A stretch of DNA of 41,194 bases from an uncultured bacterium (GCA_937911525.1 CALDQK010000390.1:1-41194), one strand, 5' to 3'. Counted from the stretch's first letter, positions 11,794 through 41,194 are shown. Notes: generated by a model not told the origin, from the sequence alone. Program-made: numbers and translations.

Positions 11794-11810
11794 GCTGCCT
11801 CCTGGGCTAG

Positions 11811-13249: not shown

Positions 13250-13280
13250 TCAGGTTTGGCGGATCCGTGGAGAGAGCCCA

Positions 13281-14714: not shown

Positions 14715-14909
14715 CCCGAGCGCGACCAGCCCCGCGTTAGGCGTGTACGTGAGCCGGGAGTGGCTCGGAGCCGATACCCGGGTCGTGGTCGAGGAGTCCG
14801 TTGGCAGTCAGCAGACGCTGCGGCAACTCCAGGCAAGCTATCGGCGGGTGACGCCATGAGCGAGGCGCTTCGCTACGCTAGACGCCGTCCCCGAGAGGCG
14901 GTCCTCAGC

Positions 14910-18681: not shown

Positions 18682-18684
18682 GCT

Positions 18685-21412: not shown

Positions 21413-24240
21413 GGGTCGTGCCGCCTGGCTCGGCGCCCCGAGACATTCACGACCTCACGTCCCTCAGAATCCGTCGTCCGCTGCAAGGTATAGGTGGTGT
21501 TCCCGCTCGACGTGGCCACCTCTGGGGCTGCGGCCAGCAGCTGGAGATCGAGTGCTGCACACAGGTCGAATAGGACCCCCAGATTGTCGAGCGAGAGGCG
21601 ATTGGCTTCGTCTAGGAACAAGAATCGGAGCGTTCCGGTCTCTCGGCGGGCACGGATCAGAGCAGCATCACGCTCCCACGCGGTCAAGACCACCATCATG
21701 ATGGCTGCACCAACGCCAATCCCCTCGCCAGTAGACATCTGGGCTCCGTCTCGCACTTCCTCCCAATCGTCGGAGTTGCTTCTCCGCGCTTCGACCCTGA
21801 GCTTGAGGTACTCCCGGTAGTCCAGTATCCGCCGCCCGCCGTCTCGACGTCCTCCGTGCCGCCGGAACAGCTCGTCCAATGCCTCCTCGATGGACATGTC
21901 GGGACCGAACAAAGCGCCCTGTTGGTCCGGGTCTGACAAGGCTGAGAGGATCGAGCTCATGCTCTTCTCCCGTTCGCTCTTGACTCGGATCGCCTCGATG
22001 CTGCCGAAGCCAACCCCGCGCAGATCGCGGTTTAGCTTGGTGAGTAGGTTGTTCACCTTGCGGAGTCGTCCCTCGATCGCCCGCGCAACGTCTCGAGAGT
22101 CTCCGCGAAGCCGGTGTTCGTAGCGTTGGAGCTTGTCCACCAGGCGATCCAGGTAGCGGCGCAGCCTGCGCAACGCTTCAACTGGGTCTTCGACTTCACT
22201 GACGTGCTTGGGTACTCGCTCAGCAAGCCAAGCTCGGGTGTCGAGCCACGCGCGCACGTACTGATCACTCCCAGTCTCCGTGCTCGACTCGGCGATGAGA
22301 CGCAGGGCCGCTGCTAAGCTCTCTCCGCCAGTAGCGCGCTGAAGTCGGTCAAGCATCAGCGCCCACCAATGCTTCCGGAGTTGGAATACATCGACACTGG
22401 CGTTCCCTGCGACCTCCTTCAACGCCTCATCCCCAAGAGCGGCCTCGAGCAGCCCCAGTTCGGCGCACCTAGCCTCCAACGCCTCCCAGCGGGCAACGGC
22501 CGGCCCGGCCTGCGCTTCTTGCTCAGTGCGCTCCTTGATCGCCGCCCCTACTCTCGTTTCGGCTGCCGCGACTTGGGGCTCGATGCTCGCGAGCAGGTTG
22601 CCGGCAGCCTTCGTAGCCTCTACTGCTGCGTCGTGCCCTGCGATCGCCGCGCGTGCGGCCGCCTTAGTCAATCGAAGTGCCTCGTCCGAAGCATCATCGA
22701 CTCCGCAGGCTTCGATCTCCGCGTCCATGGCTCGTAGACGCGCGCGACTCCCTTCAACCCTCCCCTCTGCGTCTCGGAGATCCTTCTCCCGATCGTTCTC
22801 GTCTTCCTTCCGTCGGTTGCGCCTTTCCCGAGCCTTCTCCAAGAGTTTCTCTGCTGCCTCGACCTCTGCGTTGAGTGAGGCCAAGAGTTCCTCCTCTGCC
22901 CGAATCCTCTCCTCGGCGTCAGCGAATCCCAGAGCTTCGAGGTCACCCTTTACCGACTCTAGGTCAGCTTGGGGAGCGAGCCATGCGTCCCGAGTCCGTT
23001 GAGCATTCGCAACACGCTCCTCAAGTTCTCTGCGATCCGCAGCGTTGAGTGGAGGCGTGCGGAGATCGTCCAATCCACTGGCGACGATCTCCTGGTCAGA
23101 CAGCAGGCGGTCAACCCGGCGACTCGCAGCAGCTGCAGCCGCGACCTCCTGCTTGAGTTGCGCAGCGCGTTCAGCATGTTCAGGAGGCGGCAAGAGGGTC
23201 GCGTCAGGCCAGACCTCCTCTAGCGCCTGCTTTCGTGTCCTCAGTTGCCCCCACCTGTCGGTGAGCAATCGCAACCTGGCTCGTGAGTCTTCCCTCTCAG
23301 CCTGGGTCTCGACGAGCTCGGCTTCAGCGCTGGCGAGTTGCTCTGCGGGAGGCGGCCCAACAAGCAGGTCACTGTTCGGGAGCAGAGAGCGAACGCTCTG
23401 AGCATCTGCCCCTAGCGTTCTGTGACGCTCACGCTTCTCAGTGAGTCTCTCGTCGAGACTCTTCTGCTGGGCCTCCAACCGGAGGATCACCTGCTCACGC
23501 GCTTGACGTCCAATGACGGGGGCGTCAGGGAGACGGGAGAGCCTGAGCCCGAGCCCTTCTTCTACAGCTACTGAACCTCTAAGAACCTGTCCAGCAGGCA
23601 AGTCCTCCGGAGAAATCCCCACCTCCCTGCCATTCAGGAGCAGAACGGAAGGAGGAGTGTCCGAATGTTGCGCGAGTTCCTGGGCAGCTGAGTCAGCATT
23701 CTCGACGAGGATTGCGTTAACAAGCGGCCCTAGCCGCGCCTCCACTTCGGCTGCTTCCTCTACCCCTACAGTCTCGAATCGTTCAACGAGGAGGCGCCCG
23801 TCTACTCGCTCACATGCCTCAGGGAGCCCCTGGGGGAAGCTCCCCCCCATGCTCCTCAGCTCCTGGAGCCGAGCCTCCAGGGTTACCGCCTCCTGTTCCG
23901 AATCGTCGATGCTCCGTTGGGAAAGGACCCGCTCCGACTCCAAGAACGCCAGCAAGGCGGACAAGTCCGCGGGGTTGTAAACTGACTTCTCCCACCTTCC
24001 AGCGAGTGACGTGACGGCTGCACTGAACCTCCGGTGCTCATCAACGCGCTCCTGTAGAAACTCCACCTTGTCTTGGATTGCCTGGATCGCGGCTGCGAGT
24101 CTCTGAAGGTTGGTCTTCTCTGCTGAAACTTCGTCCTGAGCATCAGACTCTGCTGCTGACGTGTCTCGCCTGGCGCGCTCAACGTCCTGGGGGTCATTCA
24201 GAGGCATGTCTGGGGTTGCCAGCCCTGCCCCAACGGTCGG
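21409..24240 (-). pseudogene. mukB: MukB-like SMC ATPase, 5'-truncated (hinge, coiled coil and C-terminal head only)
   Basis: Hinge GRLLVERFETV..EEAAEVEARLGPLVNAILV, PVIGRQARE; C-head LDYREYL, signature MSTGEGIGVG, Walker B RFLFLDEANRL, LFDLCAALDLQLLAAAPE, all closely paralleling E. coli MukB. No Walker A head; similarity stops at about 24240. Confidence 0.88.
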
Positions 24241-27200
24241 GCTGCTTACGCCCTCCTGAGGCGGGCCTGGGGAAAGGACGGGCTCAAGGACCTCGACGCC
24301 TTGGGCGAGACCCTGACGGCGCGGGGCCGCGGGCGCCTCTTGGAGCTGGCCTACGAGCGCTACCGCGCCAAGGACGCGAGCGCTCACGCCAAGGCCTGCA
24401 AGACCGAGGGGATCGAGGCCGAGGGCCTGAGCCAGGATCCGGAGGCGCTGGGCGGCGAGCTGTGGACCGAGCGCTACGAGGTCTTGGCGCGGGGGGCAGG
24501 AGGCCTCCAGATCAAGAGCCTGATGAACGTGAAGGCTCGCGGGAAGGGCGGGAGCGGGGACCTGCGGCTGGCGATCGGGCGAGTCAACTTCGAGGTGCCC
24601 TTCGCCTTCGCTCGAGACGAGTCGGGCTGGCGGGTCGACTTCCCCCAGCCTCTCTACCCTGCCCTGCGAGCGATCGAGGGATTGGATCAGGCTCTAGCGC
24701 TGCTCAAGGAGGGTGACGCGGCCAAGGCCTTCGAGCTCTTGCGAGACGCGCCTGCCAGCAACGCCAAGGCCCGCCGAGCCCGCCTGGACGCGCTCCAAGC
24801 CCTCGCCCAGGCCGCGGTCGACAAGGCCGCCAAGTCGTCTCTCGAGGACCCTCTAGCTGCCGCCAAGGAGCTGGAGGCCTTCCAAGCCAAGTATGGCGAC
24901 GCGATCGCGGGGACGGGGCTCGACGAGTCGATCCGCAAGGTCCTGGTCTCGCTCAAGGGTCCTGAGGCGACGACCGAGGAGCCGCCAGAGCGTGTCGCCG
25001 CGGCCGAGAAGAAGGCGGCCGCTGGGCGCGAGCGAGTCAAGGCTCTCCAGGAGCGGATTCGCTCGGAGAAGGGCGCGCTGACCAAGGCCCTGAGCGCCGA
25101 GCTCGAGCGCGCGCGCTCCGAGTCACGCAAGGCCCCCTTGGACATCAAGCTGACGCAGGGCTTCTCTCTGGCGGGCGCGGTGTTGGAGGATCGAAACGAG
25201 CAGGGGTTCAAGGTCAAGGCTGCGGAGGGTGCAGCGGCGCGGTCTTGGAGCAGCGTCCCCGAGGCGGTGGCCCTCAAGCTGCGCCAGCTGGGTGTCCGCG
25301 AGGACGACGCTCAGGACCAGCTCCGCTTCGGCTACTGGGCGCTCAAGCAGCGAATGTTCAAGGAGGCGGATCGAGCCTTCGAGCGGGCGATCAAGCTGGA
25401 CGGCGCGCTCTCGAGCAAGGTCCCGAACGTGTCGGAGCTCGAAGAGGCCTCGCGCGTCTTCCAGGGGAAATATAGTCAAAAGGGGACGAGCGTCACGATC
25501 GAGTATCCCTTCCGCAAGCAGGACGAAGGGAAGGACTGGGCCTTCACGCCCTTTCGCGGGACCTCCGCCAAGGTCGTGGGCGGCGCGCTCGAGGCGACGG
25601 GCCGCGGGATCTTCCTCGTCGGGACCCAAGAGATCGGGTTCGACGGGCGCTGCGATCTCCAAGCCACCATCGAGAAGGTCACGGGCGACCACGGCGGCTG
25701 CTTCGGGATCGGGTTCGACTGCGACGGGAACGACGCAGTCTGGTATCTGGTCACGGTCTACCCCAAGTATCGCGCGCTGCGACTCCTCCGCTATCGGAAC
25801 GGGAACCTAGAGACGCTCAAGGAGAAGCGGAAGGCTGTTCGCCCGACCGGGAGCACGGACATCCGGGTCGTGATTCGCGGGAACTCGCTCAAGGTCAGCT
25901 CACGGGGCCAAACGCGGATCGCGGTCAACATTCCCACCCCGACTTGGAACGGGACCCGGGTCTTCGTCGGCGGCGCGGGTCCCATGAAGTCGGCAGCGAT
26001 TCGCCTGCGCAAGGTCAAGCTCCAAGGGCACGTTCGCTTCGCCTGGCTGCGGAAGTCCTTCGCGCGCCTGGACGCGCTCTTGTTCAAGGCGCTCAGCCGG
26101 GCCGGCGAGCTCCCGGTGTTCGGGGCCAGCGCGGCGGACCGTCCCATCGACACTTCGCTCTCCGCCGAGGACGAGTTCGGGCTCTCCAAGGTCTCGCCCC
26201 AAGCCCTCCAGGCCTACCGGAAGGCGGTCTCTCAGATCGGCAGCGAGGACTACCGGGTCCTCTACACGGTGGCTGACAACATAGGCAACGCGATTCGCCT
26301 CAGCCCTGACTTCGCCGCTGCTTACTACGTCCGCGCGCGACTTTTTCACAAGATCGGCAGCGCCTTCCTGGCCGAGCGCGACCTGGAGATCGCGTGCCGC
26401 CTGGCCCCGCGCTTCCACGAGGCCCAGGCGCTTCGGGCCCGGGTCCTGCTCGACATTGGCCGTCCCAAGGAGGCCCTGGTTCAAGCGGAGGCCGCGATCA
26501 AGAGCGCTCCGGGGGCTGCCGAGGGTTACATCGCGCGCGGTCTGGTCCGCTTCTCTCAAGACGAGTTGGAGGTCGCCCTCGAGGACCTCGAGTTGGCTCG
26601 GGCCCTGGCTCCTTGGGAGGAGGAGTTGGTGGGGCTGACTCGCAACGTCCAGAACGTGATCAACGGCCCTCCTTGGGCGCGGCGCTTCGAGGCCAAGACC
26701 GAGAACTACTTCGTCCAGACGAACGTCTCAGCGACCGCTGCCCAGGAGTATGCGGAGCTCTTGGAGGCGGGCCGGGCGCACTACGCCAAGACCTTCCCGC
26801 TTCCGGCGGACGGTCGTCGCTCCAAGGTCCTGATCTTCGACACTCAGGAGGGTTACCACGGCTATTCGGAGCTCAGCATCAACGATCGCGTGGAGTCCAC
26901 CCTCGGGTGCTATCTGCCTCGCTACCGCCAGCTGCTCCTCTTCGAGGAGAAGGGGAGCAAGACGAGGGACAAGACGATCCAGGTCTTGCTCCACGAGGGC
27001 TTTCACCAGTTCATGCACCAGCTCGTGCCCGACAACGCGATTCCTTTCTGGTTGAACGAGGGCCTCGCCGAGTTCATGAGCGCCGTAGAGGTCAAGGGAG
27101 GACGTGTTGGTCGCACAGGCCTCGTCCTAGAGGGACGGCTTGACAACCTTCGCTACTTCGTCAAGGCCAACGGCAACCGCCCGATGTCCTTCCCCAAGAT

Positions 27201-28013: not shown

Positions 28014-29075
28014 CTAAGCAGCCTCCCGGTGGTAGTGGCGCAGGAGCCCGCCGAGGCGGGATCGACAGAGAAGTCTGCCCTCCTGCTGGCCGACGGTCGG
28101 CCCAGGGTCGATCAGGGCGCTATCGAGGCCCTGGTGGTTCCTCTCTCGGTGGTAGTGCTCGACGTATTGAGCAACCGCGTGGCGGAGGTGCCCTTCGCCC
28201 AGGATCACCATGCGACCGAGGCACTCGTGCTTGATCGAGCGCACGAAGCGCTCGGCGTAGGCGTTGAGGTTCGGGCTTCGGCGAGGCAAGGTCACGACCT
28301 GGACTCCGCTGTGCCTAAGAAGTTCCTTGAAGGCTGCGGTGAAGAGCGGATCCCGGTCGAGGATCAGGTGGGTCTTGCCCTGGAGGAAGCCGTCGAAGTC
28401 GTTGAGCAGGTTGCGAGCGACCTGAAGGACCCACTGGCCGTCGGGGTCGGGCTGGATCCCTGCTATATGAACTCTCCGCGTTCTGAGCTCCATGACAAAG
28501 AACACGGAGTAGCGGACGATTCCCCGCAGGGTCAAGACCTCGACCTGGAAGAAGTCACCAGCGGCCAAGCCTTCCCAGTGAGCAGCCAGGAATTCTCGCC
28601 ATGAGGTGGAGCGGTTTCGCTCCGGGGCTGGGACGACGCCCTTGTCGTCCAGCACTCGCTTCACGGTGCTGCGGCTCGTGGAGTATCCGAGGTTGTGGAG
28701 GACGTCGCGGAGGCGGGTGTAGCCGAAGCCAGGGTTCTCGTGAGCGAGGCGGAGGAGGAGGGGCGCCAGCTGCTGGCGCCTCCGGGGGCGACCCAGGGGC
28801 TTGGAAGAGTGTTTCTCCGCAGCGAGGTTGCGATACCAGCGCAGGATCGTGTCCGGGGTCACCAACGAGGCGTAGCGAGCCAGGAGCGCCCTCCCAAGCG
28901 CCTTGCCAGCCTGAGCGAGCCGGTGACGCTGACGAGGCGTGTAGCGCAGCCTGCGGCCTCCGAGCTGCTCTCGGAGGGTCTCGTTCTCGGCCTGGAGGTA
29001 GGCGATCACCGTCTGCTGCTCCCGAGAGACCCAACCGACGGCCAAGAGGAGGAAGAATCGGACGACGTGAGGCAT
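28014..29075 (-). CDS. Integrase core (rve, DDE) transposase, IS3/IS481-related
   Basis: N-terminal HTH region ([11 protein letters not shown]...[18 protein letters not shown]) and catalytic D (GDFFQVE), D (LDRDPLF), E ([12 protein letters not shown]); ends [14 protein letters not shown]. Confidence 0.92.
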
Positions 29076-29422: not shown

Positions 29423-29775
29423 CCTTCCCGCCCGAGGCCCGGTTTTCTTGGCGATCTCGGCGCTTTGGCGCCACAAGTCTAGACTCGACGGCGAATCGGG
29501 CCTCAAAGCCATACTGCCTGGGGCCCTGAGCATACCGCCCCCGTCCCGGTGGTAAGGACTTACGGCAGGGACCGTACCGCCTTGGCGCCACGCCATACTG
29601 GGGTCGAATTGGGCGTCCTGGGTACCCAGAACTGGGCGCTCAGAACGGAATCCGAGAAGGGTTCCCTCGAATCGCTTCACCCTCTTCGTGTAGTCGCCGA
29701 GGGCGCGGCTGTCAATGTTCGCTCGCTTGGGTGAGCGCGATGGCCCGCTCGCGCTGCGGGTGCCATGATCCCTCC

Positions 29776-31653
29776 ATGAGCTTCCAGCGGATCCGTTCAA
29801 TAGAGATCGACGAGGGGTTCCTTGGCGGCTTCCAGCAGGAGCTGTCGGGCCACCTGAACTGCGTGATCGGCTCGCGCGGCTCGGGCAAGACCACCCTGCT
29901 CGAGTTCCTCCGCTACGCGCTGCAGGTGCCGGTCGAGGACTCGCGCAGCCTCGAGGGCCTGGTGAAGAAGAACCTCAAAGCGGGCAGGATCCGCGTCGAG
30001 GTCGAGACCCCCCTGGGGGTCTTTGTCGTTGAGCGCCAGGCCAAGTCCGCCCCCAAGGTCTTCGACGCCCAAGGCGCCCTGATCCACTCGCCCCCCGAGG
30101 GGCTGCTCAAGACCGGCGCATACGTCTACAGCCAGTCCGAGATCGAGGCCATGGCGAGCAAGCCCATGGATCGCCTGGCCCTGATCGACCGCTTCGCCCA
30201 CGACGACCTCGAGACCGTCAAGGCGACCTTGGAGCGCCTCGACAGCCAGCTCCAAGTCTCAGCAGCGCAGCTCCAGAGCCTGCATGGAGAGGTGGGGGAC
30301 GTGGAGGCGCTCCAGCACGACCTGGAGTCCGCCCGGATCAAGCGAAAGTCCTTCGAAGGAGGCCAGGTCGACACCAATGCGCAGCTTCAAGCCGCCACCG
30401 CTGCCGCTTCCGCCCGAGCTGAGGAGGAGCGCGTCGTCAAGAGCCTGGCGAAGGGGGCCAAGGCCACGGAGCTAGCCCTAGACGAGTCGCGAAGCCGAGC
30501 CCTTGAGGGTCTTCAGCCCCGCCCTGTGGGCGCGGCGTCTCCGAATCAGGACGTCTTGAAGCGGATCCAGGCTGCGCAAGAGCGTCTTCGACAAGCAATC
30601 GAGCGCCATATGGACGCCGCCCAGACAGAGGTGCGGGAGTTCCTCGAGGAGTGCCGCTCGGTTCGGCATGCGCTCTACGAGCGGCATCATGAGCAAGGCG
30701 CGGCCTTTTCGGAGTTGCTGAGGCAGCAGGAGGTCGCCAAGGCAGCCGCAGCGGCGATTCTGGAGGCCGACGCTGCCGTCGCGTCGCTTGAGGAGAAGGT
30801 TCGGGATCAGGAGGCACGCCTCGCTCAGCTCTCGCGACAGCGCCACGCGCGCCAAAGCCAGATCGCCCGACTCTCAGAGGCACGGGATCGCCGTCGCGCA
30901 ACACGCCGCAGGGTCGTTGAGTTCCTCAACGAGAACCTCGTGGGCGCTGGAATTCGTATCGAATTCCAAGGTCAGGGCGACACTCAAGCCTTTGAGCAGG
31001 CGCTCTCCAACTTCTATCGAGGGACAGGGGAGACGGGCCAGAAGCGCGTGATTGCGGGCGTCGTCGAGCACCTAAGCCCTAGCGAGTTCGCGCGCCTCGT
31101 CGCGGAGAATGCAGCGGAAGAGCTCGCGACACTGACCCACGTGGAGCGGGCGCATGCCGAGTGGCTGATTCGTCACCTTCGTGGCAAGCCGGAGCACTAC
31201 CAGATCGAGGTGCTCGACCTCCCTGACGTCCCCTCGATCCTGTTCAAGGACGGAGAGGAGTGGAAGTCTTCCCACGAACTCAGCACCGGGCAGAAGTTCT
31301 CGGCGATCCTCCCGATTCTCCTCCTGCAGAGTGACAAGCCTCTGATCTGTGACGAGCCTGAGAGCCACCTGGATCAAGACACCCTCATGGAGAAGATCGT
31401 TGACCCAATCAAGAAGCTCGCAGGCAAACGACAACTGATCTTCGCGACGCACAACGCGAACATTGTCGTCTTGGGAGACGCGGGGCAGACCCACGTCGTC
31501 GTCCTGGAGTCCACAGGGACCGCGGCCCGCGTGGTTCGCGCGGGGACCGTTGACGACGCCAAGGTCGAGATCGGAGCCCTACTGGAGGGCGGACCCGAGG
31601 CCTTCCGCGAGCGCGCACGCCGCTACGGAGGGAAGTATGAGTCCCGATCTTGA
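29776..31653 (+). CDS. SMC/Rad50-like ABC-family ATPase with long coiled coil (TrlF/Ppl-ATPase-like, no PHP domain)
   Basis: Walker A GSRGSGKT, Q-loop YSQSEIE, coiled coil, signature LSTGQK, Walker B LICDEPESHLD, H-loop ATHNANIVV, C-terminal LEGGPEAFRER. Confidence 0.9.
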   Translation: MSFQRIRSIEIDEGFLGGFQQELSGHLNCVIGSRGSGKTTLLEFLRYALQVPVEDSRSLEGLVKKNLKAGRIRVEVETPLGVFVVERQAKSAPKVFDAQGALIHSPPEGLLKTGAYVYSQSEIEAMASKPMDRLALIDRFAHDDLETVKATLERLDSQLQVSAAQLQSLHGEVGDVEALQHDLESARIKRKSFEGGQVDTNAQLQAATAAASARAEEERVVKSLAKGAKATELALDESRSRALEGLQPRPVGAASPNQDVLKRIQAAQERLRQAIERHMDAAQTEVREFLEECRSVRHALYERHHEQGAAFSELLRQQEVAKAAAAAILEADAAVASLEEKVRDQEARLAQLSRQRHARQSQIARLSEARDRRRATRRRVVEFLNENLVGAGIRIEFQGQGDTQAFEQALSNFYRGTGETGQKRVIAGVVEHLSPSEFARLVAENAAEELATLTHVERAHAEWLIRHLRGKPEHYQIEVLDLPDVPSILFKDGEEWKSSHELSTGQKFSAILPILLLQSDKPLICDEPESHLDQDTLMEKIVDPIKKLAGKRQLIFATHNANIVVLGDAGQTHVVVLESTGTAARVVRAGTVDDAKVEIGALLEGGPEAFRERARRYGGKYESRS

Positions 31654-32716
31654 GGCGCTCGCGAAGCGACTGGATCGGGGCAGTTGGACCGAGCGCGAGG
31701 AAGCGCTGCGCAAGGTTCGGCGCCTCGCCGAGAGCCTGCCGCCAACAGCCTTGGAGGAGCTGCTCGAACCGCGCTTGAGCGTCCTGGCTGCCGACTCCAA
31801 GTGGGAGGTCCGCCGAGGTTTGGCGCGCGTGCTGGGGCACTACCGCAGCGCGAGTGCGCGAAACGTGATCGAGCGGCTGTGGGGCGACGACAACGCTCAG
31901 GTCTCCAAGACGGCCCAAGAAACGCGGAAGCGCTGGACGGCCGACGATCGCGAACTCGAGCGAAGGAGGGCGCTGGAAGAGACGCTCCCTGAGCGTCTTC
32001 GCGAGCTGCGCGACCGAGACCCCGAAACGGCCCAGGCCGCAGAAGAGCTGGCGTTCCGGCAGTCAGCGCTTTCGATCGGCGCTCTGGCTCACGACCTCGC
32101 GACCACCACCTTCAACCTCGTCAACCTCAGACGTCGCGCCGAAAGCCTGCTCGCCGACACCGACCCCGGCGAGCGAGAGCCGTTCCTCTCTGGCCTGGAT
32201 CGGCAGATCGACCTCCTGAACGCGCTCGTGCAGGACTCGCGCTCCTACGCGGTGAGCGCCAACACCCCCTCGACTCAGACACCGCTCCGCCAGGCCGTAG
32301 AGAACGCGGTCGCGCGAAACCAGGCTCGACTGGAGGGAGTCACCGTGCGACTCAAGATCGGCGACGAGCTCGCCGCCTTCGTGCCTCGCGAGCCCTTCGA
32401 GCGAGCACTCGGGAATTTGCTCCGAAACGCGGGTGAGGCCTTCGAAGAGGGGCCGGGGAGCGTGATCGTTCGGGCATTCGAGGAGGACGAGTGGGTTGTG
32501 CTCGAAGTAGAGGACGACGGCATGGGTATGGAAGACCCGATTCGTTGCCTCCAGCCCTACGCCTCGACCAAGAAACGAGGAGGCGAGATTCACAGCGGCC
32601 TCGGGTTGCCAATCGTGCGCAGGATTGTGGAGACCGCTGGGGGAAGCCTGAGCATTCACTCAACGCTGGGAGCGGGCACGCGGGTTAGGCTGCAGCTCCC
32701 AAGGTGGAGCGCGTGA
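31637..32716 (+). CDS. Soluble sensor histidine kinase with N-terminal HEAT repeats
   Basis: ATG 31637 overlaps the ATPase end. HEAT-like DSKWEVRRGLARVLG and DDNAQVSKTA; H-box LAHDL, N-box GNLLRNA, G1 EDDGMGM, F-box PYASTK, G2 GLGLPIV. No TM segment. Confidence 0.9.
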   Translation: MSPDLEALAKRLDRGSWTEREEALRKVRRLAESLPPTALEELLEPRLSVLAADSKWEVRRGLARVLGHYRSASARNVIERLWGDDNAQVSKTAQETRKRWTADDRELERRRALEETLPERLRELRDRDPETAQAAEELAFRQSALSIGALAHDLATTTFNLVNLRRRAESLLADTDPGEREPFLSGLDRQIDLLNALVQDSRSYAVSANTPSTQTPLRQAVENAVARNQARLEGVTVRLKIGDELAAFVPREPFERALGNLLRNAGEAFEEGPGSVIVRAFEEDEWVVLEVEDDGMGMEDPIRCLQPYASTKKRGGEIHSGLGLPIVRRIVETAGGSLSIHSTLGAGTRVRLQLPRWSA

Positions 32717-33564
32717 TCCTCGTTGTCGAAGACCAAGAATCCATGCGTGGGATCCTCGCCGACCTCTTCCGTGGCGAGGGCTACGAGGTCGAGGTCGCCT
32801 CGGCGCGCAAGAGTGCAGAGAGCCTCCTGGCGCAGGGGGGCTTTCGACTCGCGATTCTGGACTACGAGATCCCCCTCGAGGATCGCCCGACCTCCTTCGC
32901 CTCCACTGCACAGGGCAAGGCCGTCATGGAGGCGGCAGAACGAGCGAAGGTTCCCTTCGTCGTTCTCACCGGCGTCGCCTACGACTGGCAGCAGGCCTTC
33001 GCCGCCCGCGCGGCTCTCGACTACTTGGACAAGTCCGACGCTCGCACCTTCGATCGGCTCCTCGAGATCGCGGCTCAGGTCTTCGCCAACCGCAGCGGAG
33101 GGCTCCCGCTTGAAGTGGAGCGCTACCAGGACGGCAACGTCATGCGGCTCCACAAGGATCGGCTCGTGCGGGTCTGGGTGACAGGCCAGCAGAGGCGCTA
33201 TGAGGTGGTCGTCACAGAGGGAATCGAGCGCTCGCTCTACCACTTCGCGGAGGCGCAGGGCGAGGACATGCCCTGCACGTTCCCACACGTCCCCAATCCA
33301 GATTCGCGCCGCAGCGCAGCGCGTGACCTCCGGGCATGGCTTCGAGAACACTTCGAGCCTTCGACTCCGACCGATCCCAAGGCGCCAGTGATCTCGAACA
33401 ACAGGGGTGGCTACTACTGCGAGGTCACCGTTCTCAACGAGCCCGACCCCTTCGAGTACGAAGAGCGACGGCGAGGCATGCGCGAGGCGGGAACCGAGAT
33501 CAGTCCCGAGGCCAAAAGCGACGACGGGGAGTCAGACGGCTACCAGCGTCGCCGCCCACGTTAG
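32704..33564 (+). CDS. Response regulator: receiver domain plus uncharacterised C-terminal (possibly winged-helix) output domain
   Basis: ILVVEDQ, phosphoacceptor AILD, VVLTG, DYLDK. C-terminal AARDLRAWLR...ISNNRGGYY is reminiscent of an OmpR-type wing. Start GTG 32704 or 32713. Confidence 0.85.
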   Translation: MERVILVVEDQESMRGILADLFRGEGYEVEVASARKSAESLLAQGGFRLAILDYEIPLEDRPTSFASTAQGKAVMEAAERAKVPFVVLTGVAYDWQQAFAARAALDYLDKSDARTFDRLLEIAAQVFANRSGGLPLEVERYQDGNVMRLHKDRLVRVWVTGQQRRYEVVVTEGIERSLYHFAEAQGEDMPCTFPHVPNPDSRRSAARDLRAWLREHFEPSTPTDPKAPVISNNRGGYYCEVTVLNEPDPFEYEERRRGMREAGTEISPEAKSDDGESDGYQRRRPR

Positions 33565-34157: not shown

Positions 34158-34381
34158 CCCGCGCTGGCAAGCGCCTCAGCCAGATTGAGGCACTCAGAGA
34201 GGAGATCTGTCGGCTTCGCCTGCAGCTCGAGTCCGACACCTATCAGTTCGAGGCCCTCGCGGCCTGGGCCTTGGAGGCGGGCGCCGACCCCGACGACGTC
34301 GTCGGGGACCTGCACGAAGCCGCCGAGCGTGCGGTGTGGTCCATGTCGCTCGAGTTCGGGTTCGAGCGAGGTGCGGCATGA
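34154..34381 (+). CDS. Small hypothetical protein (75 aa)
   Basis: MTRAGKRLSQIEALREEICRLRLQLE..., with ATGA overlaps at both ends. Confidence 0.7.
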   Translation: MTRAGKRLSQIEALREEICRLRLQLESDTYQFEALAAWALEAGADPDDVVGDLHEAAERAVWSMSLEFGFERGAA

Positions 34382-34968
34382 GGCGCACCGTGTTCTCGAT
34401 CCCTCCCGAGCAGCGGGAGCGGATTCGTCAGGGGATCTTGGAGCTGGAGCGCGAGGGCGAACGCGCCTCGGTCCGCTTGATTCGTGAACGCGTTGGTGGC
34501 TCCACCGACGTGATCGCGTTCTTGGTGCGGGCCGTTGCGGCAGGCTTCATTTCGCCCGAAGAGCCGTGGGACGGGCGGGTGGCTCCCCTCGACCTGAGGG
34601 AGGCGATCCGGGCAGCTACCACCCACGACGACCACGTTCGGATCCACCAAGAGGTGGCCGCCCGAGTGGCGTGCGGGGACATGAAGCCCCAGATCGCAAA
34701 GTCGATCCAGGACAGCATGACGGCGGCGCGGCTCAGCGCGAAGGCGGCCCTGGAAGCGAGCCCGCCGGTTCACGGCGAGGACTCGGTTCAACTCGTCGAC
34801 CGGGCGACCTTCTTGATCTCTCGCGTCGTGAACCGGATCGCCTCGCCCTCGATCCTCGAAGAGGTCCAGGCCTTCGTCTACGACGCCGGACGCCGCGACC
34901 TCGACGAGTTCCCGAACCCCACGATCGACGAGGTCAGCCACCTCCGAGGGGAGGGGCTGCCCTCGTGA
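34378..34968 (+). CDS. Putative DNA-binding protein (KfrA-N-like HTH); positional candidate for terminase small subunit
   Basis: N-terminal ILELEREGERASVRLIRERVGGSTDVIAFLVR resembles the KfrA_N HTH. Coupled by ATGA/GTGA overlaps upstream of HNH-terL. Confidence 0.6.
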   Translation: MRRTVFSIPPEQRERIRQGILELEREGERASVRLIRERVGGSTDVIAFLVRAVAAGFISPEEPWDGRVAPLDLREAIRAATTHDDHVRIHQEVAARVACGDMKPQIAKSIQDSMTAARLSAKAALEASPPVHGEDSVQLVDRATFLISRVVNRIASPSILEEVQAFVYDAGRRDLDEFPNPTIDEVSHLRGEGLPS

Positions 34969-35390
34969 ACTCCCCCACCACGTGGGGGCGGGGAGTGCGA
35001 GCGCGGCTCGCACTCCCCGAGGTTCCCCCAATGATCCGCTCGCTCCTCACGGAGCGTGACGGGACCGAGAGCTGCGCAGCCTGCTTGCGGATAGGCCTCA
35101 CGCCGCCTGCCAGCGAGCCGCTCGAGGTCGACCACAAGCAGCCGATCTCGCTGGGTGGCGACAACCACTGGACCAACCTCCAGATCCTCTGCCGCTACCA
35201 CAACCGCAGCCGAGGCAACCGGCCCGTCGACCCGCGTCGGCTTCCGACTTGGTTGGCGCAGTTGGCCCGAGAGCGACGACTCAAGGCACACGTCGCCTGG
35301 TGTGAAGCCTGTGGTCACGTCTGGAGCCCAGTCAGCAAGTGGCTCGCCTCTCAGGTTGAGGTGCTGCTAGCGAACGAGTCGGCGTCATGA
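34965..35390 (+). CDS. HNH endonuclease (phage packaging-associated type)
   Basis: CAAC...LEVDHKQPISLGGDNHWTNLQILCRYHNRSRG. GTG 34965 overlaps the previous stop; its own stop overlaps the terL ATG. Confidence 0.9.
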   Translation: MNSPTTWGRGVRARLALPEVPPMIRSLLTERDGTESCAACLRIGLTPPASEPLEVDHKQPISLGGDNHWTNLQILCRYHNRSRGNRPVDPRRLPTWLAQLARERRLKAHVAWCEACGHVWSPVSKWLASQVEVLLANESAS

Positions 35391-36787
35391 GCGGCTCGCT
35401 CGACGATCTCGAAGACCTCGGCTACCTCCAGGGTGAGCCGCGGCACCGCCAAGGAACCTGCGCGCAGCGCTCGCTGGGGTTTGAGCCCTGGTGGGGCCAG
35501 CGCCTCGTGCGACGCTCCGACGCTCCGTGCCGAGTCCTCGTCGCGGCGCGACAGGTGGGCAAGAGCTACCTCGCTGCACACCTGGTGATCGAGGTGGCGC
35601 TGGGACAGCCGGGGTCCTACTCGGTCCTCCTGACGCCGACCTACCTCCACGCTCGCCCCGCGATCGACACCCTGCGGCGGATCTGCCTCCACCTCCCCGA
35701 CTGCGAGTGGCGAGAGCAGCAGAAGCGACTGGTGTTCGGGAACGGCTCGATCCTCCAGGTCTTCTCGGCAGACCGGCCCCATGCGGTTCGCGGTCCCGCC
35801 CTCTCCGGCATTCTCTGGGTCGACGAGGCGGCCTTCCTGCGGCCAGCCGCCTGGGAAGCAGCCCTGGGTGCGCTGAGCTCCTCGCAGAACCCGCGCAAGC
35901 TCCTGACCACCTCACCGCTGGGCAAGAACTGGGTCTTCAAGGAGTTCGTCACCGGCAACGCAGGCAACGAGCCCTTCCGCTTTCGCTCGGCGGACAGTCC
36001 CTACGTCAACCAGGAGGAGGTCGCTCGCAACCGCGCCAAAATGACGCCAGAGCGAGCCGCGCAGGAGTTCGACGCCGAGTTCGTCGATTCGCTCTTGCTC
36101 GTGTTCCCTGACCTCTCGCGGCTCTTCGTGAAGACCGTGGGGACGCACCCAGAGACCCCCAAGCGAGCGCTTGGGGTCGACCTCGGCAAGGACCAGGACT
36201 GGACCGTCGTCGTCTTGATCAATGAGTTCGGCGAGGCCGAGGTCCTGGGGCGCTGGCGCCACGTCAATTGGCCCGAGACCGAATCGCGGATCCTCGACCT
36301 GATCGAGACTCACCAGGTCTCGATCACCTGCGTCGATAAGGCCTACGTCGGCGGCTACCTGATCGACCGCCTCAAGGCCTTGGGCAAGAGCGTGCTCGAG
36401 CTGGCCACCAGCTCGCGCCAGCTCAAGGCACGTGTCATTGAGACCCTTCGTGCCGACGTCCAGCACCAACGTGTCCACGTCCTCGAGAACGAGCACTCGG
36501 ATCAGCTCCACTATGAGCTGAGCCGCTTCCAGGCCACGCAGCACGCTGTCCACGGACGACTAGAGACGCGCTACGAGTCTCCTGAGGTCCGCGGCGAGCA
36601 CGACGACTGCGTGATCGCGCTGGCGCTGGCGAACTGGGTCCGCCACCACGGCTTGGTCGGGCCCAAGCCCGTCCGGGCCGATATCCGTCGCTACGTCGCG
36701 TCCGCCAAGCGGATCTTCGGCAACGACCACTGGCCGAAGACGCCAGGTCCCGACGGCGGCTACTACGGGCCGGGGTTCCTCCTATGA
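35387..36787 (+). CDS. terL: Phage terminase large subunit (Terminase_6-like)
   Basis: Walker A AARQVGKS, Walker B LWVDEAAF, coupling motif TTSP, nuclease LGVDLG...D and HDDCVIALALA. Confidence 0.92.
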   Translation: MSGSLDDLEDLGYLQGEPRHRQGTCAQRSLGFEPWWGQRLVRRSDAPCRVLVAARQVGKSYLAAHLVIEVALGQPGSYSVLLTPTYLHARPAIDTLRRICLHLPDCEWREQQKRLVFGNGSILQVFSADRPHAVRGPALSGILWVDEAAFLRPAAWEAALGALSSSQNPRKLLTTSPLGKNWVFKEFVTGNAGNEPFRFRSADSPYVNQEEVARNRAKMTPERAAQEFDAEFVDSLLLVFPDLSRLFVKTVGTHPETPKRALGVDLGKDQDWTVVVLINEFGEAEVLGRWRHVNWPETESRILDLIETHQVSITCVDKAYVGGYLIDRLKALGKSVLELATSSRQLKARVIETLRADVQHQRVHVLENEHSDQLHYELSRFQATQHAVHGRLETRYESPEVRGEHDDCVIALALANWVRHHGLVGPKPVRADIRRYVASAKRIFGNDHWPKTPGPDGGYYGPGFLL

Positions 36788-38133
36788 GCGACCCCGCGAG
36801 AGACGCGCGGCCCTTCGGCCGCGCCCCAAGCAGCGGCGGCGACTCGCTCAACGTCCGAGCCTCGGCGGCCTTCGAGCACTTCGTCGGGCAGCAGCTCCGC
36901 CACCCCAATCCCGCCCGCGTTCCCCTGTCCTACCTCCGCGCCATGGACGACCACGCCATGGTCTACCTCGCGGAGCGCACGGTGACCGGCGTCGTTCGGC
37001 GCCCCGACCTCTACTACGTCGCCCACACCGATCCGCGGATCGTGAAGGAGACCGAGGAGTGGCTCTGGCCACTGCTCCCGAGCCTCCTGGGCTCGATCGC
37101 GCGGGCCTACGCCTTCGGCGCGATCCCCGTGGTCTGCAATTGGACCTGCGAGGACCTCGCCCACGACGAGCTGCGCTGGCCGGATCACGTTCACTACAGC
37201 TCGGCCCACGAACTGTGGCCCGAGGACGTTGACGTCGAGACCCGAAACGACGCGTTGATCGCGCTGCGCCACGAGGGCAAGCGCTACCTCGCCGAGCGGG
37301 CCCACGTCTTCGTCTGGGACTTCGCCTTTGGCTCCTGGCGAGGCCGTGCCGCCCGGCGTCGGGCCTGGTGCGACTACTGCCGGAGCCTTTCCACGGAGCT
37401 GCTCCAGCTCCGCTACCTCGAGCGGAGCGTGGACTCGCCTCGCGTCGGCTACGCGCCTGCTGGCTTCGTTGCGACGGGCGGGACCGAGGTCGACGCGATC
37501 GACCACATGAACCAGCTCTTGGGCACCCTCCAAGGCTCGGGAGCAGTCACCTTCCCGTCTGAGCGCGACGAGAAGGGGAACCTCGTCTACGACGTTCGCC
37601 TCCTCGACGGGCCCGACCGCCAGACCGTCTGGGAGCGCTCGCTGAGCCGCTACGACGCGGGGATCCTCCGCGCCTACCTCGTCCCACCACGACTTGCGGG
37701 CCTGGAGGAGATCGCCGCCACGGGGGCCCGAACCCTCGACGGCATGCTCAAGGAGTTCATACAGGACCTGGCGCAGTTCGCAGGCGATCAGCTCACCCAG
37801 CTCGTCGCCAAGGTCCACCGCCACAACCATCCCGAAACCCGCGTCCCGCCGCCCGAGGTCAAGGCCTACGAGGTCCCCGCGTCGGTTCGCAAGCTCTACC
37901 TGGAAGTCCTGCGGCTCGTATCCGCAGCCAAGCGAGAGGAGTCCCCAGCCGACTGGGTCGACGTTCCCTCCCTCCTCGATCAACTCGGTGTCCCCCTCCG
38001 TCGAGAGCCGCTCCGCGGCTCCAGCTCCGCCCCGACAGGGCGACCTCCCGACCTGACAGGCGGGAGGCAAGCGCGCCGCGAAGCGGCGCGGAGTGAGGAC
38101 CCGAGCCCCGATCTAGAAGGAGGTGAGTCGTGA
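36784..38133 (+). CDS. Probable phage portal protein (Mu gp29/DUF935-like)
   Basis: 449 aa immediately after terL; AYAFGAIPV...W, YLERSVDSPRVGYAP and RYDAGILRAYL recall DUF935-type portals. Mostly a positional call. Confidence 0.75.
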   Translation: MSDPARDARPFGRAPSSGGDSLNVRASAAFEHFVGQQLRHPNPARVPLSYLRAMDDHAMVYLAERTVTGVVRRPDLYYVAHTDPRIVKETEEWLWPLLPSLLGSIARAYAFGAIPVVCNWTCEDLAHDELRWPDHVHYSSAHELWPEDVDVETRNDALIALRHEGKRYLAERAHVFVWDFAFGSWRGRAARRRAWCDYCRSLSTELLQLRYLERSVDSPRVGYAPAGFVATGGTEVDAIDHMNQLLGTLQGSGAVTFPSERDEKGNLVYDVRLLDGPDRQTVWERSLSRYDAGILRAYLVPPRLAGLEEIAATGARTLDGMLKEFIQDLAQFAGDQLTQLVAKVHRHNHPETRVPPPEVKAYEVPASVRKLYLEVLRLVSAAKREESPADWVDVPSLLDQLGVPLRREPLRGSSSAPTGRPPDLTGGRQARREAARSEDPSPDLEGGES

Positions 38134-39323
38134 GTCGACTTATCAGTGTGTTGGTGTTGGTGGTGTGTTTTGGCGGGTTCGCCTGGGGGGCGGACTTGCC
38201 GCCGGTGGACCGAAAGCCCCCTGGGGCGGAAGGGAGTGGGGTCACTGAGGCGGTGACCAAGGAAGAGGAGGGCTTGGACGACTTCTCGTTCGACGCCTTC
38301 CGGGATCTGGTGCTCGGGCGGACGACGGTCCGCGGAGCGCTCAGCGCGGGGTATTCCTACAACCTCGCGGATCCGGAGCAGCACCGAGGCGGGAACGCGC
38401 TTCGGCTGAGCGACCCGGATCACAACAGCTTCGCCCTGACCCACGCGGTCTTGGGGTTGGAGCGTCGGGTCGATCCGAACAGCGACGTGGACGTGGGCTA
38501 TGGCCTCGATCTCACGGTCGGTCGGGTCGTGGACGAGGCCTACGACGACGGCCTCCTCCAGTCGCGAGGGATCGCGGTCGGGCAAGCCTACGTGGACCTC
38601 AAGACGCCGCTCTTCGGCGGAATGAAGTTCCGAGCAGGTAAGGAATACGGATGGTTCGGGCTCGACTCGGTCGACCTGAGCCGCAACTTCCACCAGTCGC
38701 TCAGCTACGCAGCGCTCTCGGCGCCGCGAACCCTCGTGGGGGTCTCGGCCGAGATCGAGCTCCTGGACGGGGTGACCTACGCCCAATACCTGGTCAACGG
38801 GTCTGACCTCGCGATCGACGACAACGACGCCAAGTCGCTGGCGGGCCGCCTGCGCCTGGCCTCGGATCGAGGGTCGCTCACGCTGAGCTACATGCTTGGC
38901 GCCGATCGTTTCGACAGCGAAGGCGAGCTGAGTTGGATCGCGGAAGCCGTCGCGACCTACCAGCTGACGGACACCCTGTCTGTCGGCGGCTTGGTCCGCG
39001 TCGGCCAGGAGGAGGTCAACGGGTCGGTCCGTGAGTTCGGCCTCCTCGAGGCCCAGGCTCGGGTCTCGCTCTTCGACGGCCTGCTCCACCTCGGGGCACG
39101 GGCCAGCGTCCTCCACGACGAGGACGGAATGATCACGGGACGCGACCAGTCGCTCTTCGAGATCACGGCGACGGCTGAGCTGCGCTTGGCTGAGCAGTTT
39201 GGCGTCGGCGCGGAGTTCCGTCACGACGAGTCGTCCGAGGACGACGCTTTCGGCGGGAGTCGAGGTGCTGCCACGCGCAGCAGCCAAGACACCCTCTCGT
39301 TCTTCGTTCGCGTCCGCTTCTAA
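38130..39323 (+). CDS. Outer-membrane beta-barrel protein (putative porin, BBP2/DUF1597-like)
   Basis: Signal peptide (MSRLISVLVLVVCFGGFAWG), GYSYN...NALRLSD..HNSF, QAYV...RAGK, AEFRHD, alternating beta-strand pattern and terminal FFVRVRF with C-terminal Phe (BAM signal). Confidence 0.85.
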   Translation: MSRLISVLVLVVCFGGFAWGADLPPVDRKPPGAEGSGVTEAVTKEEEGLDDFSFDAFRDLVLGRTTVRGALSAGYSYNLADPEQHRGGNALRLSDPDHNSFALTHAVLGLERRVDPNSDVDVGYGLDLTVGRVVDEAYDDGLLQSRGIAVGQAYVDLKTPLFGGMKFRAGKEYGWFGLDSVDLSRNFHQSLSYAALSAPRTLVGVSAEIELLDGVTYAQYLVNGSDLAIDDNDAKSLAGRLRLASDRGSLTLSYMLGADRFDSEGELSWIAEAVATYQLTDTLSVGGLVRVGQEEVNGSVREFGLLEAQARVSLFDGLLHLGARASVLHDEDGMITGRDQSLFEITATAELRLAEQFGVGAEFRHDESSEDDAFGGSRGAATRSSQDTLSFFVRVRF

Positions 39324-39338: not shown

Positions 39339-39364
39339 GGGGCGGGGCCGTCAGGCCCCGCCCC
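39339..39364. other. Intercistronic 11-bp GC hairpin
   Basis: GGGGCGGGGCC-GTCA-GGCCCCGCCCC between the porin stop and the GGAGG RBS of the protease gene; no U-tract. Confidence 0.6.
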
Positions 39365-39377: not shown

Positions 39378-40574
39378 ATGCCTACTCAGCTCTCCGCCCT
39401 TCACCTCCCGCTGGTCTCGAGCCGGCTGATCGTTGATCGCACCACCCCGGGTCGGATCCTGGGCGTCTCGATCCTGACCACGGGCCCCGCCAAGGGGCAT
39501 GGGTTCGACGTCGACGAAAACCTCGTCGAGCGCGTCGTCCACCTCGGCCAAGGAATCAGGGGCCGCTGGACCCACGGGGCTCCAGGAGCCAGCGCGCTCG
39601 GTCGCCACCTCGGCGAGTGGTCGAACCTCCGCACCCAACGCTTCTCGGTCTGCAGGTCCTGCCAGCTTGAAGCAGAGACCCCGCACTGCGGCCAGTGCGG
39701 CGCCAAGACGGAGGCCGCCCTGAGGGCGCTGGGCGACTTCGCGTTCAGCGCCAGCGCCTGGAAGCTCAAGCCCGACGGGCTCGACGTGCCTGCCCCCGAA
39801 TACCTCATGACTCGGGCCGAGGAGGACCCGCGCAGCCTGGGGATCTCGATCGTGGCGCCTCTGCGCCTGGAGGCTGAGCCGGGCAACAGCGACACCCCTC
39901 GGACGCTGGCCCGAATCGTGGGCGACGAGCTGCTGCGCGCTGACTGGGTCGCGGACCCCGCCGCCAATCCCACCGGGCTCTCCCAGGACGCAGGCGAGGA
40001 GCCCTTCCTTCCCCACCTGGACCGGCTCGTGGCCACCCGAGGCGAGGAGGGAGCCCGGCTCCACATGCTCGGGGTCCTGGCGCGCTACTTCGGCGACGAG
40101 GCCGAGGAACCCGCTGCCGCGCCGCCTCCCGTGCTCAGCCCGTCGGCGGAGGACGTTGCAGCTCTCCGGAACGAGCTGGCCAGCCTTCGCGCCGAGGTCG
40201 AAGGAGTCCGGCGCGAGACCCGGAGCCTGTCCGTTGGGCTGGCTGCCGAGCGGATCCGCTTCCTCAAGCGCCAGGCTGCGGCCCTCGACGCCCCCGTCAC
40301 GGCAGACGAGATCGCCTCGCTGGAAGCGCTCGCAGACCAGGGCAACTACGCCGCCGTTCGGACACGCGCCGAAGCCTGCCTGGCCAGGTGCGAGGCCAAG
40401 CAGCAGGCCCCCCACGAGGCGGTCGCGGTCGTGCCGCTCCGCGTCCAGCCAACCGCCGAAGACTCACTCGCCGTGCAGGCCCGCGTCTTCGACGCCTCGC
40501 GGCGCGTGCTGCCGCCCCTCCCTTCCCTCTCCCCCACCCCGACTGCCCAAGGAGGCCGCCATGAGAGTTCCTGA
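39378..40574 (+). CDS. Probable prohead maturation protease/scaffold with inserted Cys4 zinc ribbon
   Basis: GVSILTTGPAKGHG...RGRWTHG...AEEDPRSLGISIV...ADWVADPAANPTGL resembles phage prohead proteases (His, Ser, DxVxxPA). C-terminal coiled-coil scaffold-like part; CRSC-x8-CGQC insert. Confidence 0.75.
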   Translation: MPTQLSALHLPLVSSRLIVDRTTPGRILGVSILTTGPAKGHGFDVDENLVERVVHLGQGIRGRWTHGAPGASALGRHLGEWSNLRTQRFSVCRSCQLEAETPHCGQCGAKTEAALRALGDFAFSASAWKLKPDGLDVPAPEYLMTRAEEDPRSLGISIVAPLRLEAEPGNSDTPRTLARIVGDELLRADWVADPAANPTGLSQDAGEEPFLPHLDRLVATRGEEGARLHMLGVLARYFGDEAEEPAAAPPPVLSPSAEDVAALRNELASLRAEVEGVRRETRSLSVGLAAERIRFLKRQAAALDAPVTADEIASLEALADQGNYAAVRTRAEACLARCEAKQQAPHEAVAVVPLRVQPTAEDSLAVQARVFDASRRVLPPLPSLSPTPTAQGGRHESS

Positions 40575-41194
40575 GATCACGACGCGGGAGCACCGTCCCC
40601 GTCGCTACCTGGTCAATGACCAGGTCTACGTCCGGCACAAGGACGTGGTCCTCGAGGCGGACACCGAGTCGCCGATGGTTCCCGTGGACAAGATCCGCGC
40701 GGGCACGGTTCTGGTCGCAGCTCAGCGCTCCTCGACCTTCGTGGTCGCGACGGACGACCGCGCCGAACGGTGTCGCCCTGCGCGGCTGGTGTCGCTGGCT
40801 CCCGCCGACGCCCAGTGGGCCAACTCGGTCCTGACGGCCTCGCTGGGCCGGGACACGGGCTTCGCGGTCGTGCTCGACGCCAACGCGGTCGACACCGCTG
40901 CGGTCGTGGATCAGCTCAACCAGAACCTGGCCTTCTCGGTCCACTTCCTCGCGGACGAGGACCCCAACGGCCTGGTGCGAATCCGAACCCGCTCCAGCGG
41001 CGCGGACGCCTTCCTGCACGTCGCCAGCAGCTACGTCCAGGCCTTCGGCCCCAAGGGCACGGCTGCGATCGGTCGCGACCCCGTGGTCTGTGTCGCCGAC
41101 GACCTCGGCGAGCTGAAAGACGTCGAAGGACGAGCGGCCCAGTCCCTCGTTCCCACGATCGCGGCGGGTCACTTCCGCGAGTCCGAACTGATCG
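40561..41194 (+). CDS. Putative head decoration-type structural protein (partial; not in the ORF track)
   Basis: GGAGG RBS, ATG 40561, open to the window end: MRVPEITTREHRPRRYLVND...KIRAGTVLV...VCVADD...AAGHFRESELI. Position after the protease and the IxAGTVL...G.F motifs fit lambda gpD-like decoration proteins. Confidence 0.6.
   Translation, partial: MRVPEITTREHRPRRYLVNDQVYVRHKDVVLEADTESPMVPVDKIRAGTVLVAAQRSSTFVVATDDRAERCRPARLVSLAPADAQWANSVLTASLGRDTGFAVVLDANAVDTAAVVDQLNQNLAFSVHFLADEDPNGLVRIRTRSSGADAFLHVASSYVQAFGPKGTAAIGRDPVVCVADDLGELKDVEGRAAQSLVPTIAAGHFRESELI

Follow-up and report, generated by a model that had tools for sequence, protein, structure and literature searches.

Phage-borne outer-membrane proteins and the accessory-gene junction of Mu-like phages are both already known. 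The Lc porin belongs to the lambdoid phage PA-2, and Lom of phage lambda is an 8-stranded barrel. NmpC of the prophage DLP12 is an OmpC/F-type, general-porin-like channel of 16 strands, and its gene forms a separate unit in the late region, where it is encoded on the opposite strand and flanked by the Q antiterminator gene on one side and the lysis genes on the other. Lom and Bor, outer-membrane proteins from the late regions of temperate phages, are morons, which are defined as independent transcription units (PMC3594210). In the head module of Mu, the portal gene H is followed by F and G, the protease gene I with the scaffold Z, and the capsid gene T, and the annotated Mu genome has a terminator and a C-dependent late promoter between G and I. 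For the Pseudomonas Mu-like phages (D3112/JBD30/DMS3 group), PMC3993853 (Fig. 1 legend) and PMC4378225 describe variable, horizontally acquired non-structural genes immediately 5' of the protease-scaffold gene, with an anti-CRISPR region between G and the protease/scaffold gene in the former and regions of genomic plasticity G/H in the latter. Here, a gene at the same junction is described in a 41,194-nucleotide stretch of DNA from an uncultured bacterium (GCA_937911525.1, CALDQK010000390.1:1-41194; hereafter the window), which is a whole contig (C390) of a 10.2-Mb metagenome-assembled genome (MAG) that is split over 1342 contigs, 90% complete and 6.4% contaminated. It encodes a porin of the BBP2 family (38130..39323, plus strand), and the order in the window is directly portal, porin, protease.

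The porin gene encodes 397 aa and is joined to the portal gene (36784-38133), since its GTG start codon (38130-38132) shares the letters GTGA with the portal's TGA stop codon (38131-38133). A Shine-Dalgarno sequence, GAAGGAGG, was read from the sequence at 38117-38124 on the plus strand, within the portal's final codons and 6 nt 5' of the start, and it also precedes the porin start in three related loci (L037, L039 and L042). A sequence-only reading of the window had pointed out this signal-peptide-like, phenylalanine-ending open reading frame, its overlap with the portal stop and the missing room for a promoter of its own, and it had placed the gene between portal and prohead protease genes. 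All of this holds, as the 4-nt overlap leaves no such room in the window and as the neighbours could be assigned independently (see below). The explanation that we consider likely is that the porin is a non-virion protein expressed late together with the head proteins, and that its gene is a passenger fixed at the portal/protease boundary of Mu-like prophages.

The porin matches the BBP2 family (PF07642; TC 1.B.66, formerly DUF1597) over its full length, with an E-value of 4.9e-29 and 102.1 bits against a gathering cut-off of 26.2, and residues 65-396 cover profile positions 2-338 of 339. A copy on contig C96 of the same genome reaches 112.7 bits, and the length agrees with the typical family size of about 400 aa. 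The N-terminus, MSRLISVLVLVVCFGGFAWG/ADLPP, is hydrophobic with an AWG/A site and, judged by eye, resembles a Sec signal peptide, while the C-terminus reads ...FFVRVRF, its terminal phenylalanine being kept in 22/22 aligned homologues. An AlphaFold2 model built from 22 sequences has 16 strands (pLDDT 75.4, pTM 0.75), with residues 1-52 disordered. Its best Foldseek matches in the PDB are the 16-stranded general porins BpsOmp38, Omp32, PorB and OmpF (E-value about 5e-13, TM 0.6-0.7). The other Pfam matches were NtrZ over a short stretch and a sub-threshold Porin_O_P match; no OmpC/F-type porin family was among them, so that only the fold is shared, and there was no PHROG match. According to the model, the protein is a closed 16-stranded outer-membrane barrel of the BBP2 family, in line with the beta-barrel proposed beforehand, and its pore is predicted to be a diffusion-type channel, exported by Sec and inserted by the beta-barrel assembly machinery. 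Like NmpC, it is thus a general-porin-like channel of 16 strands, as modelled, from a prophage late region; unlike NmpC, it belongs to BBP2, and its gene runs in the direction of the head genes, with which it overlaps. The modelled strand number also differs from that of Lom. For the BBP2 family, the tables in PMC4827864 list 10 or 18 strands, and the same paper records the family in Planctomycetes with structure and function unknown.

The position of the gene also fits a different kind of product, namely a structural or assembly protein that has replaced the F/G-type minor head proteins following the portal in Mu. The porin occupies the slot of F and G, and no Phage_Mu_F or G-type family was matched in any scanned protein of the elements. 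However, the signal-like N-terminus, the terminal phenylalanine, the full-length BBP2 match and the 16-strand fold point to export, whereas capsids assemble in the cytoplasm, and many relatives do not have the porin at the junction. This replacement is therefore most improbable, and since the signal-peptide-like N-terminus and the terminal phenylalanine coincide with a porin fold, the product is expected in the outer membrane and not in capsids.

To be counted as informative for the conservation of the junction, a locus had to show the protease start and enough upstream DNA. Duplicates of the window's own contigs were excluded; the rearranged locus L025 was left out, and L038, L052, L054, L057 and C927 were uninformative. 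In a recount with hidden Markov models (HMMs), the BBP2 gene stands immediately 5' of the protease gene in 18/29 informative loci, and in 15/25 when identical or nearly identical pairs are collapsed (L048/L049, L046/L047, L028/L072, L040/L041). tblastn gives the same picture, and in the genomes of relatives BBP2 adjoins five of the seven protease genes with a visible N-terminus. Clades keeping this position have diverged by about 60% in the large terminase subunit gene (terL). In the BBP2 tree, the head-module copies fall into a window-type clade (support 100/99) and a cargo-type clade (100/100), accompanied by two clades from outside head modules and by several clades of solo chromosomal copies. 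The portal tree contains the same two clades, supported by 99 and 99. On a 23-row protease tree, the presence of the porin takes two changes, and it is found in 9/9 cargo-type and 6/6 window-type rows; among similar phages its presence follows clades and is not sporadic. Two of the three trees, including the protease tree, were made by a quick method. The ratio of nonsynonymous to synonymous divergence (dN/dS) is 0.17-0.37 for BBP2 (10/10 pairs), 0.09-0.32 for the portal (5 pairs) and 0.19-0.52 for the protease (4 pairs). In the same pairs, dS has a similar magnitude for both genes, at 0.17-0.98 for BBP2 and 0.34-1.26 for the portal. These sequence comparisons point to a porin that is under purifying selection and has been kept vertically together with the portal.

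This pattern bears on the possibility that a host chromosomal porin was recently inserted by chance and means nothing for the phage, which the sequence-only reading had named as what would speak against its own view. The GC content of the porin gene (about 0.67-0.70) is the same as that of the adjoining genes, and BBP2 genes without recognisable phage neighbours do occur in relatives (L060-L065). However, the closest BBP2 proteins outside the elements are at most about 45% identical, close as well as distant portal and terL relatives keep the porin, the BBP2 and portal clades are congruent, the gene is under purifying selection, and its coupling signals are conserved. A recent chance insertion is thus scarcely credible.

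The two clades differ in the anatomy of the junction. In window-type loci (the window, L036, L037, L039, L040, L041 and L042), the start of the porin gene either shares GTGA with the portal stop or lies about 10 nt 3' of it, and a GC-rich hairpin follows the porin stop in 7/7 loci. In the window, this hairpin (39339..39364, plus strand) separates the porin stop from the protease start and consists of an 11-bp stem, GGGGCGGGGCC / GGCCCCGCCCC, with a tetraloop and without a U-tract. Its predicted RNA fold has -38 kcal/mol and a z-score of -3.3; L042 has an extra compensated T:A pair and L037 a G:U change. A terminator scan gave one unrelated site and missed the hairpin because of the lacking T-run. 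In cargo-type loci (C96, C1282, L028, L031, L032, L043, L048 and others), the space 3' of the portal is taken up by 2-6 kb of unrelated genes, which often have the reverse orientation, and then come a leader and the porin, whose stop precedes the protease ATG by 2 nt in 7/8 loci and by 20 nt in the eighth. The leader of about 60 nt, GCGTTCAGC ... CGTCCCA ... GGGGC-ATG, is present in 6/6 usable cargo-type rows (the C1282 row was left out), at 11945-12009 of L017 (C96) and at equivalent places in L028, L031, L032, L043 and L048. It marks the right edge of the variable region and may harbour a late promoter or a regulatory hairpin. The porin thus stands at a unit boundary, being joined to the upstream unit in the window type and to the downstream unit in the cargo type. 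As every related copy is tightly coupled to head genes, the earlier proposal of co-expression with capsid assembly is the natural one.

The genes inserted between portal and porin in cargo-type loci include bacterial defence systems. C96 carries a Pycsar system (L017 10086-11431) with a PycTM effector (E-value 1.4e-29) and a cyclase, C1282 a CapP-like protein and PDC-M45B, L031 HEC-05/GmrSD, L032 HEC-09, and L028 PDC-M19A. In L030, a pair resembling a diversity-generating retroelement, consisting of a bAvd-like protein and a reverse transcriptase, lies 3' of the portal (13037-14754). A gene of the LpxR family of lipid A deacylases directly follows the portal in L031 and L032, and the C1232 copy, which has no porin, contains an RND and CDF efflux set. 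The portal/protease junction is therefore the accessory-gene hotspot of these elements, defence genes included. This disagrees with the earlier assumption that accessory genes sit outside this junction, as do the G/I operon boundary of Mu and the Pseudomonas anti-CRISPR region. Mu has its operon boundary before the protease gene, as found here, and its terminator and late promoter show why the site is permissive; because of the anti-CRISPR region, accessory genes at this junction are already known. Compared to the Pseudomonas phages with their small anti-defence genes, the cargo here is large, with lengths of 0-9 kb, and it is made up of bacterial defence systems together with LpxR and efflux pumps, and a porin is fixed at the protease-proximal edge, translationally coupled and co-diverging with the phage. 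A second cargo site is the tail region, where L078 (G009:C4) encodes a ubiquitin-like conjugation pair at 3271-5636, made up of a Multiubiquitin + E2 protein and a JAB + ThiF/E1 protein.

The same anatomy has to be weighed against a classical moron of lysogenic conversion. In that case, a promoter in the 3' end of the portal gene (window type) or in the leader (cargo type) would drive the porin while the prophage is repressed, and the host would benefit from nutrient or metal-related uptake or from the swap of a phage-receptor porin, as with the lambdoid Lc and NmpC. The known examples of phage-borne outer-membrane proteins are encoded by conversion genes, that of NmpC lying beside lysis genes in the late region of DLP12, and the elements carry much envelope cargo of benefit to the host (RND, MacAB, TolC-like and CDF transporters, P-type ATPases and MerR/MerT). 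The hairpin 3' of the window-type porin is terminator-like. The window's genome has seven BBP2 matches, four of them in head modules, two in LpxR-BBP2 islands among metal-resistance genes and one seemingly split over two contig ends. However, a moron is an independent unit, and neither type is insulated: the window porin has the 4-nt portal overlap and no room for its own promoter, and cargo-type copies, with 2 nt before the protease gene, have no terminator, so that a promoter for the porin would drive the protease, scaffold and capsid genes too. Moreover, no promoter-like site was found in a scan that is weak for this phylum. A conversion moron is thus possible but rather doubtful.

Alternatively, the late porin and the LpxR-family lipid A deacylase could breach the outer membrane at lysis and replace spanins. 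This would explain the wiring of the porin into the late operon and its inheritance with the head genes, and the coupling of the porin to late genes fits such a role. LpxR (PF09982, E-values 1e-59 to 1e-80) has five matches in the window's genome. It heads the rightward packaging operon in the left arm of C96, C165 and G009:C4, before ParB_N, Mom, HNH and terL, in addition to the two loci with LpxR behind the portal. The late lys operon of Mu starts with endolysin and spanins, and no endolysin, holin or spanin family was matched in any scanned protein of the elements, although unrecognised lysis genes mean little in phages that are so divergent. However, a porin acting as a lysis factor is without precedent, the protein is structurally closest to ordinary diffusion porins, LpxR is missing from the available sequence of window-type elements, and the porin is missing or frameshifted in many relatives. 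Egress as the main explanation is therefore unlikely.

LpxR also stands directly 5' of BBP2 in C149, C828 and L058, outside head modules. The statement that all left-arm BBP2 copies lie inside prophages was tried and dropped, as no terL or portal is present on the 35-kb contig of C828. Another companion is a module of three genes at 29731..33564 (plus strand) in the window, encoding an ABC-type ATPase, a HEAT/HATPase_c protein and a receiver-domain protein, as assigned by Pfam; the ATPase also has partial Ppl/AriA-like matches in PADLOC. The ABC-ATPase/HEAT-HATPase_c module adjoins the packaging genes in the window, C938/L042 and L059, and homologous modules adjoin BBP2 in C149, C828, L058, L059 and L063. 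The module may be an uncharacterised system of defence or signalling with a link to the porin.

The carrier is probably a family of Mu-like, transposable prophages that is confined, among the searched genomes, to one family of Planctomycetota. Related loci are titled Planctomycetota, except for one short contig labelled Melainabacteria. A protease profile matched 5/10 genomes from the host's own taxonomic family and 0/30 from more distant Planctomycetota. terL has nine matches in the window's own genome with identities of 42-76%, and pieces of head modules were found there on C96, C1282, C938/C88/C477, C1232, C192, C809 and other contigs. On a 187-kb contig of a relative, an rve + Mu-transpos_C_2 transposase, ArdA, ParB_N and a Mom-family protein (E-value 1e-41) stand beside the module, for which reason the family is read as Mu-like and probably transposable. 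In G009:C4, an rve + Mu-transpos_C_2 protein lies 0.7 kb from the left arm of the module, and at least four transposase-ArdA units are present on short contigs of the window's genome.

The sequence-only reading had also considered domestication of the cluster, and a domesticated particle system resembling a gene transfer agent (GTA), with the porin serving release or uptake, would be one form of this. No relative was found in IMG/VR searched by portal patterns or by tblastn of porin and portal against 50,697 GenBank phage records, and most structural proteins have no PHROG match (16/20 proteins in the portal-to-tail regions of relatives). Against such a system stand the several diverged copies per genome (39-76% terL identity), the different cargo in each copy, the Mu-type transposase, Mom and ArdA beside the module, and the patchy occurrence within the taxonomic family; a single conserved chromosomal locus with host-like rates was not seen. 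Domestication is not supported by these findings, and a GTA-like system is very unlikely.

The identities of the neighbouring genes were established by profile and fold comparisons. The portal protein (36784..38133, plus strand) itself has no match in Pfam, PHROG, NCBIfam or PDB sequences. A profile built from five homologues matched 308 proteins among 1.84 billion, and of the 60 that were scanned, 56 contain Portal_Mu (PF06074) above the Pfam cut-off. The ESM Atlas feature score against Portal_Mu clusters is 0.98. This transitive evidence indirectly confirms the upstream gene as a probable Mu-type portal. The downstream gene (39378..40574, plus strand) encodes a prohead serine protease in its N-terminal part of about 200 aa, fused to a scaffold region that is low-complexity and coiled-coil-like in the alignment. 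The model of the N-terminal domain (pLDDT 76) aligns with T4 gp21 in VIA-align with Z 10.4 over 146 residues, followed by herpesvirus assemblins with Z 5.0 and 4.5, and His41 and Ser157 are kept in 16/16 sequences. In Foldseek against the PDB, no match reached an E-value of 0.001, with T4 gp21 only at rank 13. Matches to MCM N-terminal domains were spurious and came from a zinc-ribbon insert (CxxC...CxxC, residues about 92-107), which is not present in the most distant homologue, L055. The modelled fold thus confirms the assignment as a prohead protease. The protease has no PHROG match, PDB sequence profiles gave nothing meaningful for portal or protease, and an NCBIfam scan of 17 proteins had no matches.

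Upstream of the portal, the large terminase subunit (terL; 35387..36787, plus strand) was identified by phrog_2 (E-value 6e-35) and Terminase_6N (3.8e-7), and an HNH endonuclease (34566..35390, plus strand) by Pfam HNH (3e-7) and phrog_589 (3e-8). The true start of the latter is probably later than that of the longest open reading frame because homology begins near residue 130, tblastn alignments starting at query residues 126-140. A conserved gene 5' of HNH/terL, orf210 (34336..34968, plus strand), has a weak KfrA_N match (E-value 0.014) and possibly encodes a small-terminase-like DNA-binding protein; its homologues precede HNH-terL in C938/L042, L025, L028, L030 and L031. Between the protease-scaffold gene and, in full copies, the capsid gene lies p231 (40561..41193, plus strand), which is conserved, clipped by the contig end and without PHROG match. 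Its homologues have 229-233 aa and are followed by a lambda-E-type capsid gene (Phage_cap_E / phrog_29) in C96 and others, a position that by analogy would fit a decoration or auxiliary head protein. The module thus has in common with Mu the Mu-type portal and a protease with a C-terminal scaffold, and differs from it by the lambda-E-type capsid, the HNH gene beside terL and the absence of recognised F/G homologues.

The remainder of the window, from position 1 to about 29 kb, contains host-like or island genes and no tRNA was found in the window. The GC content drops from 0.70-0.76 to 0.61-0.68 at about 7 kb, and most of the contig may therefore be part of an island or element and not of the core chromosome. 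An efflux operon at 13242-19875 encodes a TolC-like OEP, a TetR regulator, a MacB-like ABC ATPase and permease, and an HlyD-family adaptor; efflux sets are also cargo of the sister elements C1232 and C722. JetD_C and MukB-hinge/SbcC-like genes at 20426-24387 (minus strand) look like a partial Wadjet system, near which a Schlafen/AlbA_2 gene (10564-11931) is located, and transposase fragments lie at 8987-9385 and 28014-29075.

Taken up again, the reading as a late-expressed passenger would run as follows. The porin gene would have been retained for long between the packaging/portal unit and the protease-scaffold-capsid unit, and the protein would be made alongside the head proteins in the productive cycle through its coupling to portal or protease, which, together with the missing promoter space, makes late co-expression the simplest inference. 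It would then alter the outer membrane of the producing cell, often accompanied by the element-borne LpxR-family deacylase. On this reading, the gene would be co-transcribed late and its product exported, and outer-membrane remodelling would be the purpose. As to the benefit, surface conversion, exclusion or the shielding of progeny from re-adsorption is tentatively put forward. An egress aid acting with LpxR and helping the breach of the outer membrane at lysis is a more doubtful role, and solute uptake for host or phage is rated equally low.

Several observations weigh against this reading. The porin is not at the junction in 10 of the 25 collapsed loci, and a 1-nt deletion common to two metagenome contigs, L040 (at about 1180) and L041 (at about 459), breaks the porin gene into two frames at a GGG run, reflecting either a pseudogene lineage or a common error. 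The porin is hence dispensable for the persistence of the element, and together with the absence of LpxR from the 41 kb or 17 kb available of window-type elements, this speaks against an essential role. Deep nodes of the BBP2 tree are weak (15/44 and 50/47) and do not separate a single ancient acquisition from two. BBP2 copies in C149, C828, L058 and L063 lie outside head modules, the island of C828 even on a contig without terL or portal. A sigma-70 promoter scan of 33.4-41.2 kb, whose consensus does not cover the promoter types of Planctomycetota, gave 0 sites; a promoter within the 3' end of the portal gene is possible and would allow expression in the lysogen. The window contig itself yielded no Mu-type transposase and no Mom. 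Sequence similarity to Mu gp29 and gpI is not detectable: hhalign comparisons of the portal profile with E. coli Mu gp29 and of the protease with Mu gpI were negative, and the protease has no Pfam match to Mu-like_Pro. In addition, the source is a fragmented MAG whose contamination has to be kept in mind, and genes outside the window were called by a GC3-based script, with start codons of homologues picked by similarity.

In the literature, no published phage-borne BBP2 member and no account of a head-operon BBP2 porin were found (bioRxiv supplements were outside the scope), nor anything that joins Planctomycetes with prophage porins or transposable phages, and searches for LpxR with prophages gave nothing relevant. 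A 2025 review of Planctomycetota mentions phage once. A BBP2 porin as a clade-wide, translationally coupled and co-diverging head-operon gene is therefore new, as are the use of the junction for bacterial defence systems and the phage family itself. Phages of Planctomycetota have received hardly any study. What the finding adds in this phylum is a multi-copy prophage family that is probably transposable. The junction as a hotspot for defence islands extends the Pseudomonas anti-CRISPR junction to another phylum with the opposite kind of cargo, and one outer-membrane porin has become a near-core gene wired into the late operon. If the porin acts in egress or in the protection of progeny, it would represent an envelope function of a kind new for phages. 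Should it instead be conversion cargo, prophages would hold a large share of the genome's BBP2 porin genes, at least four of seven. In either case, the porin family TC 1.B.66 gains a testable biological context.

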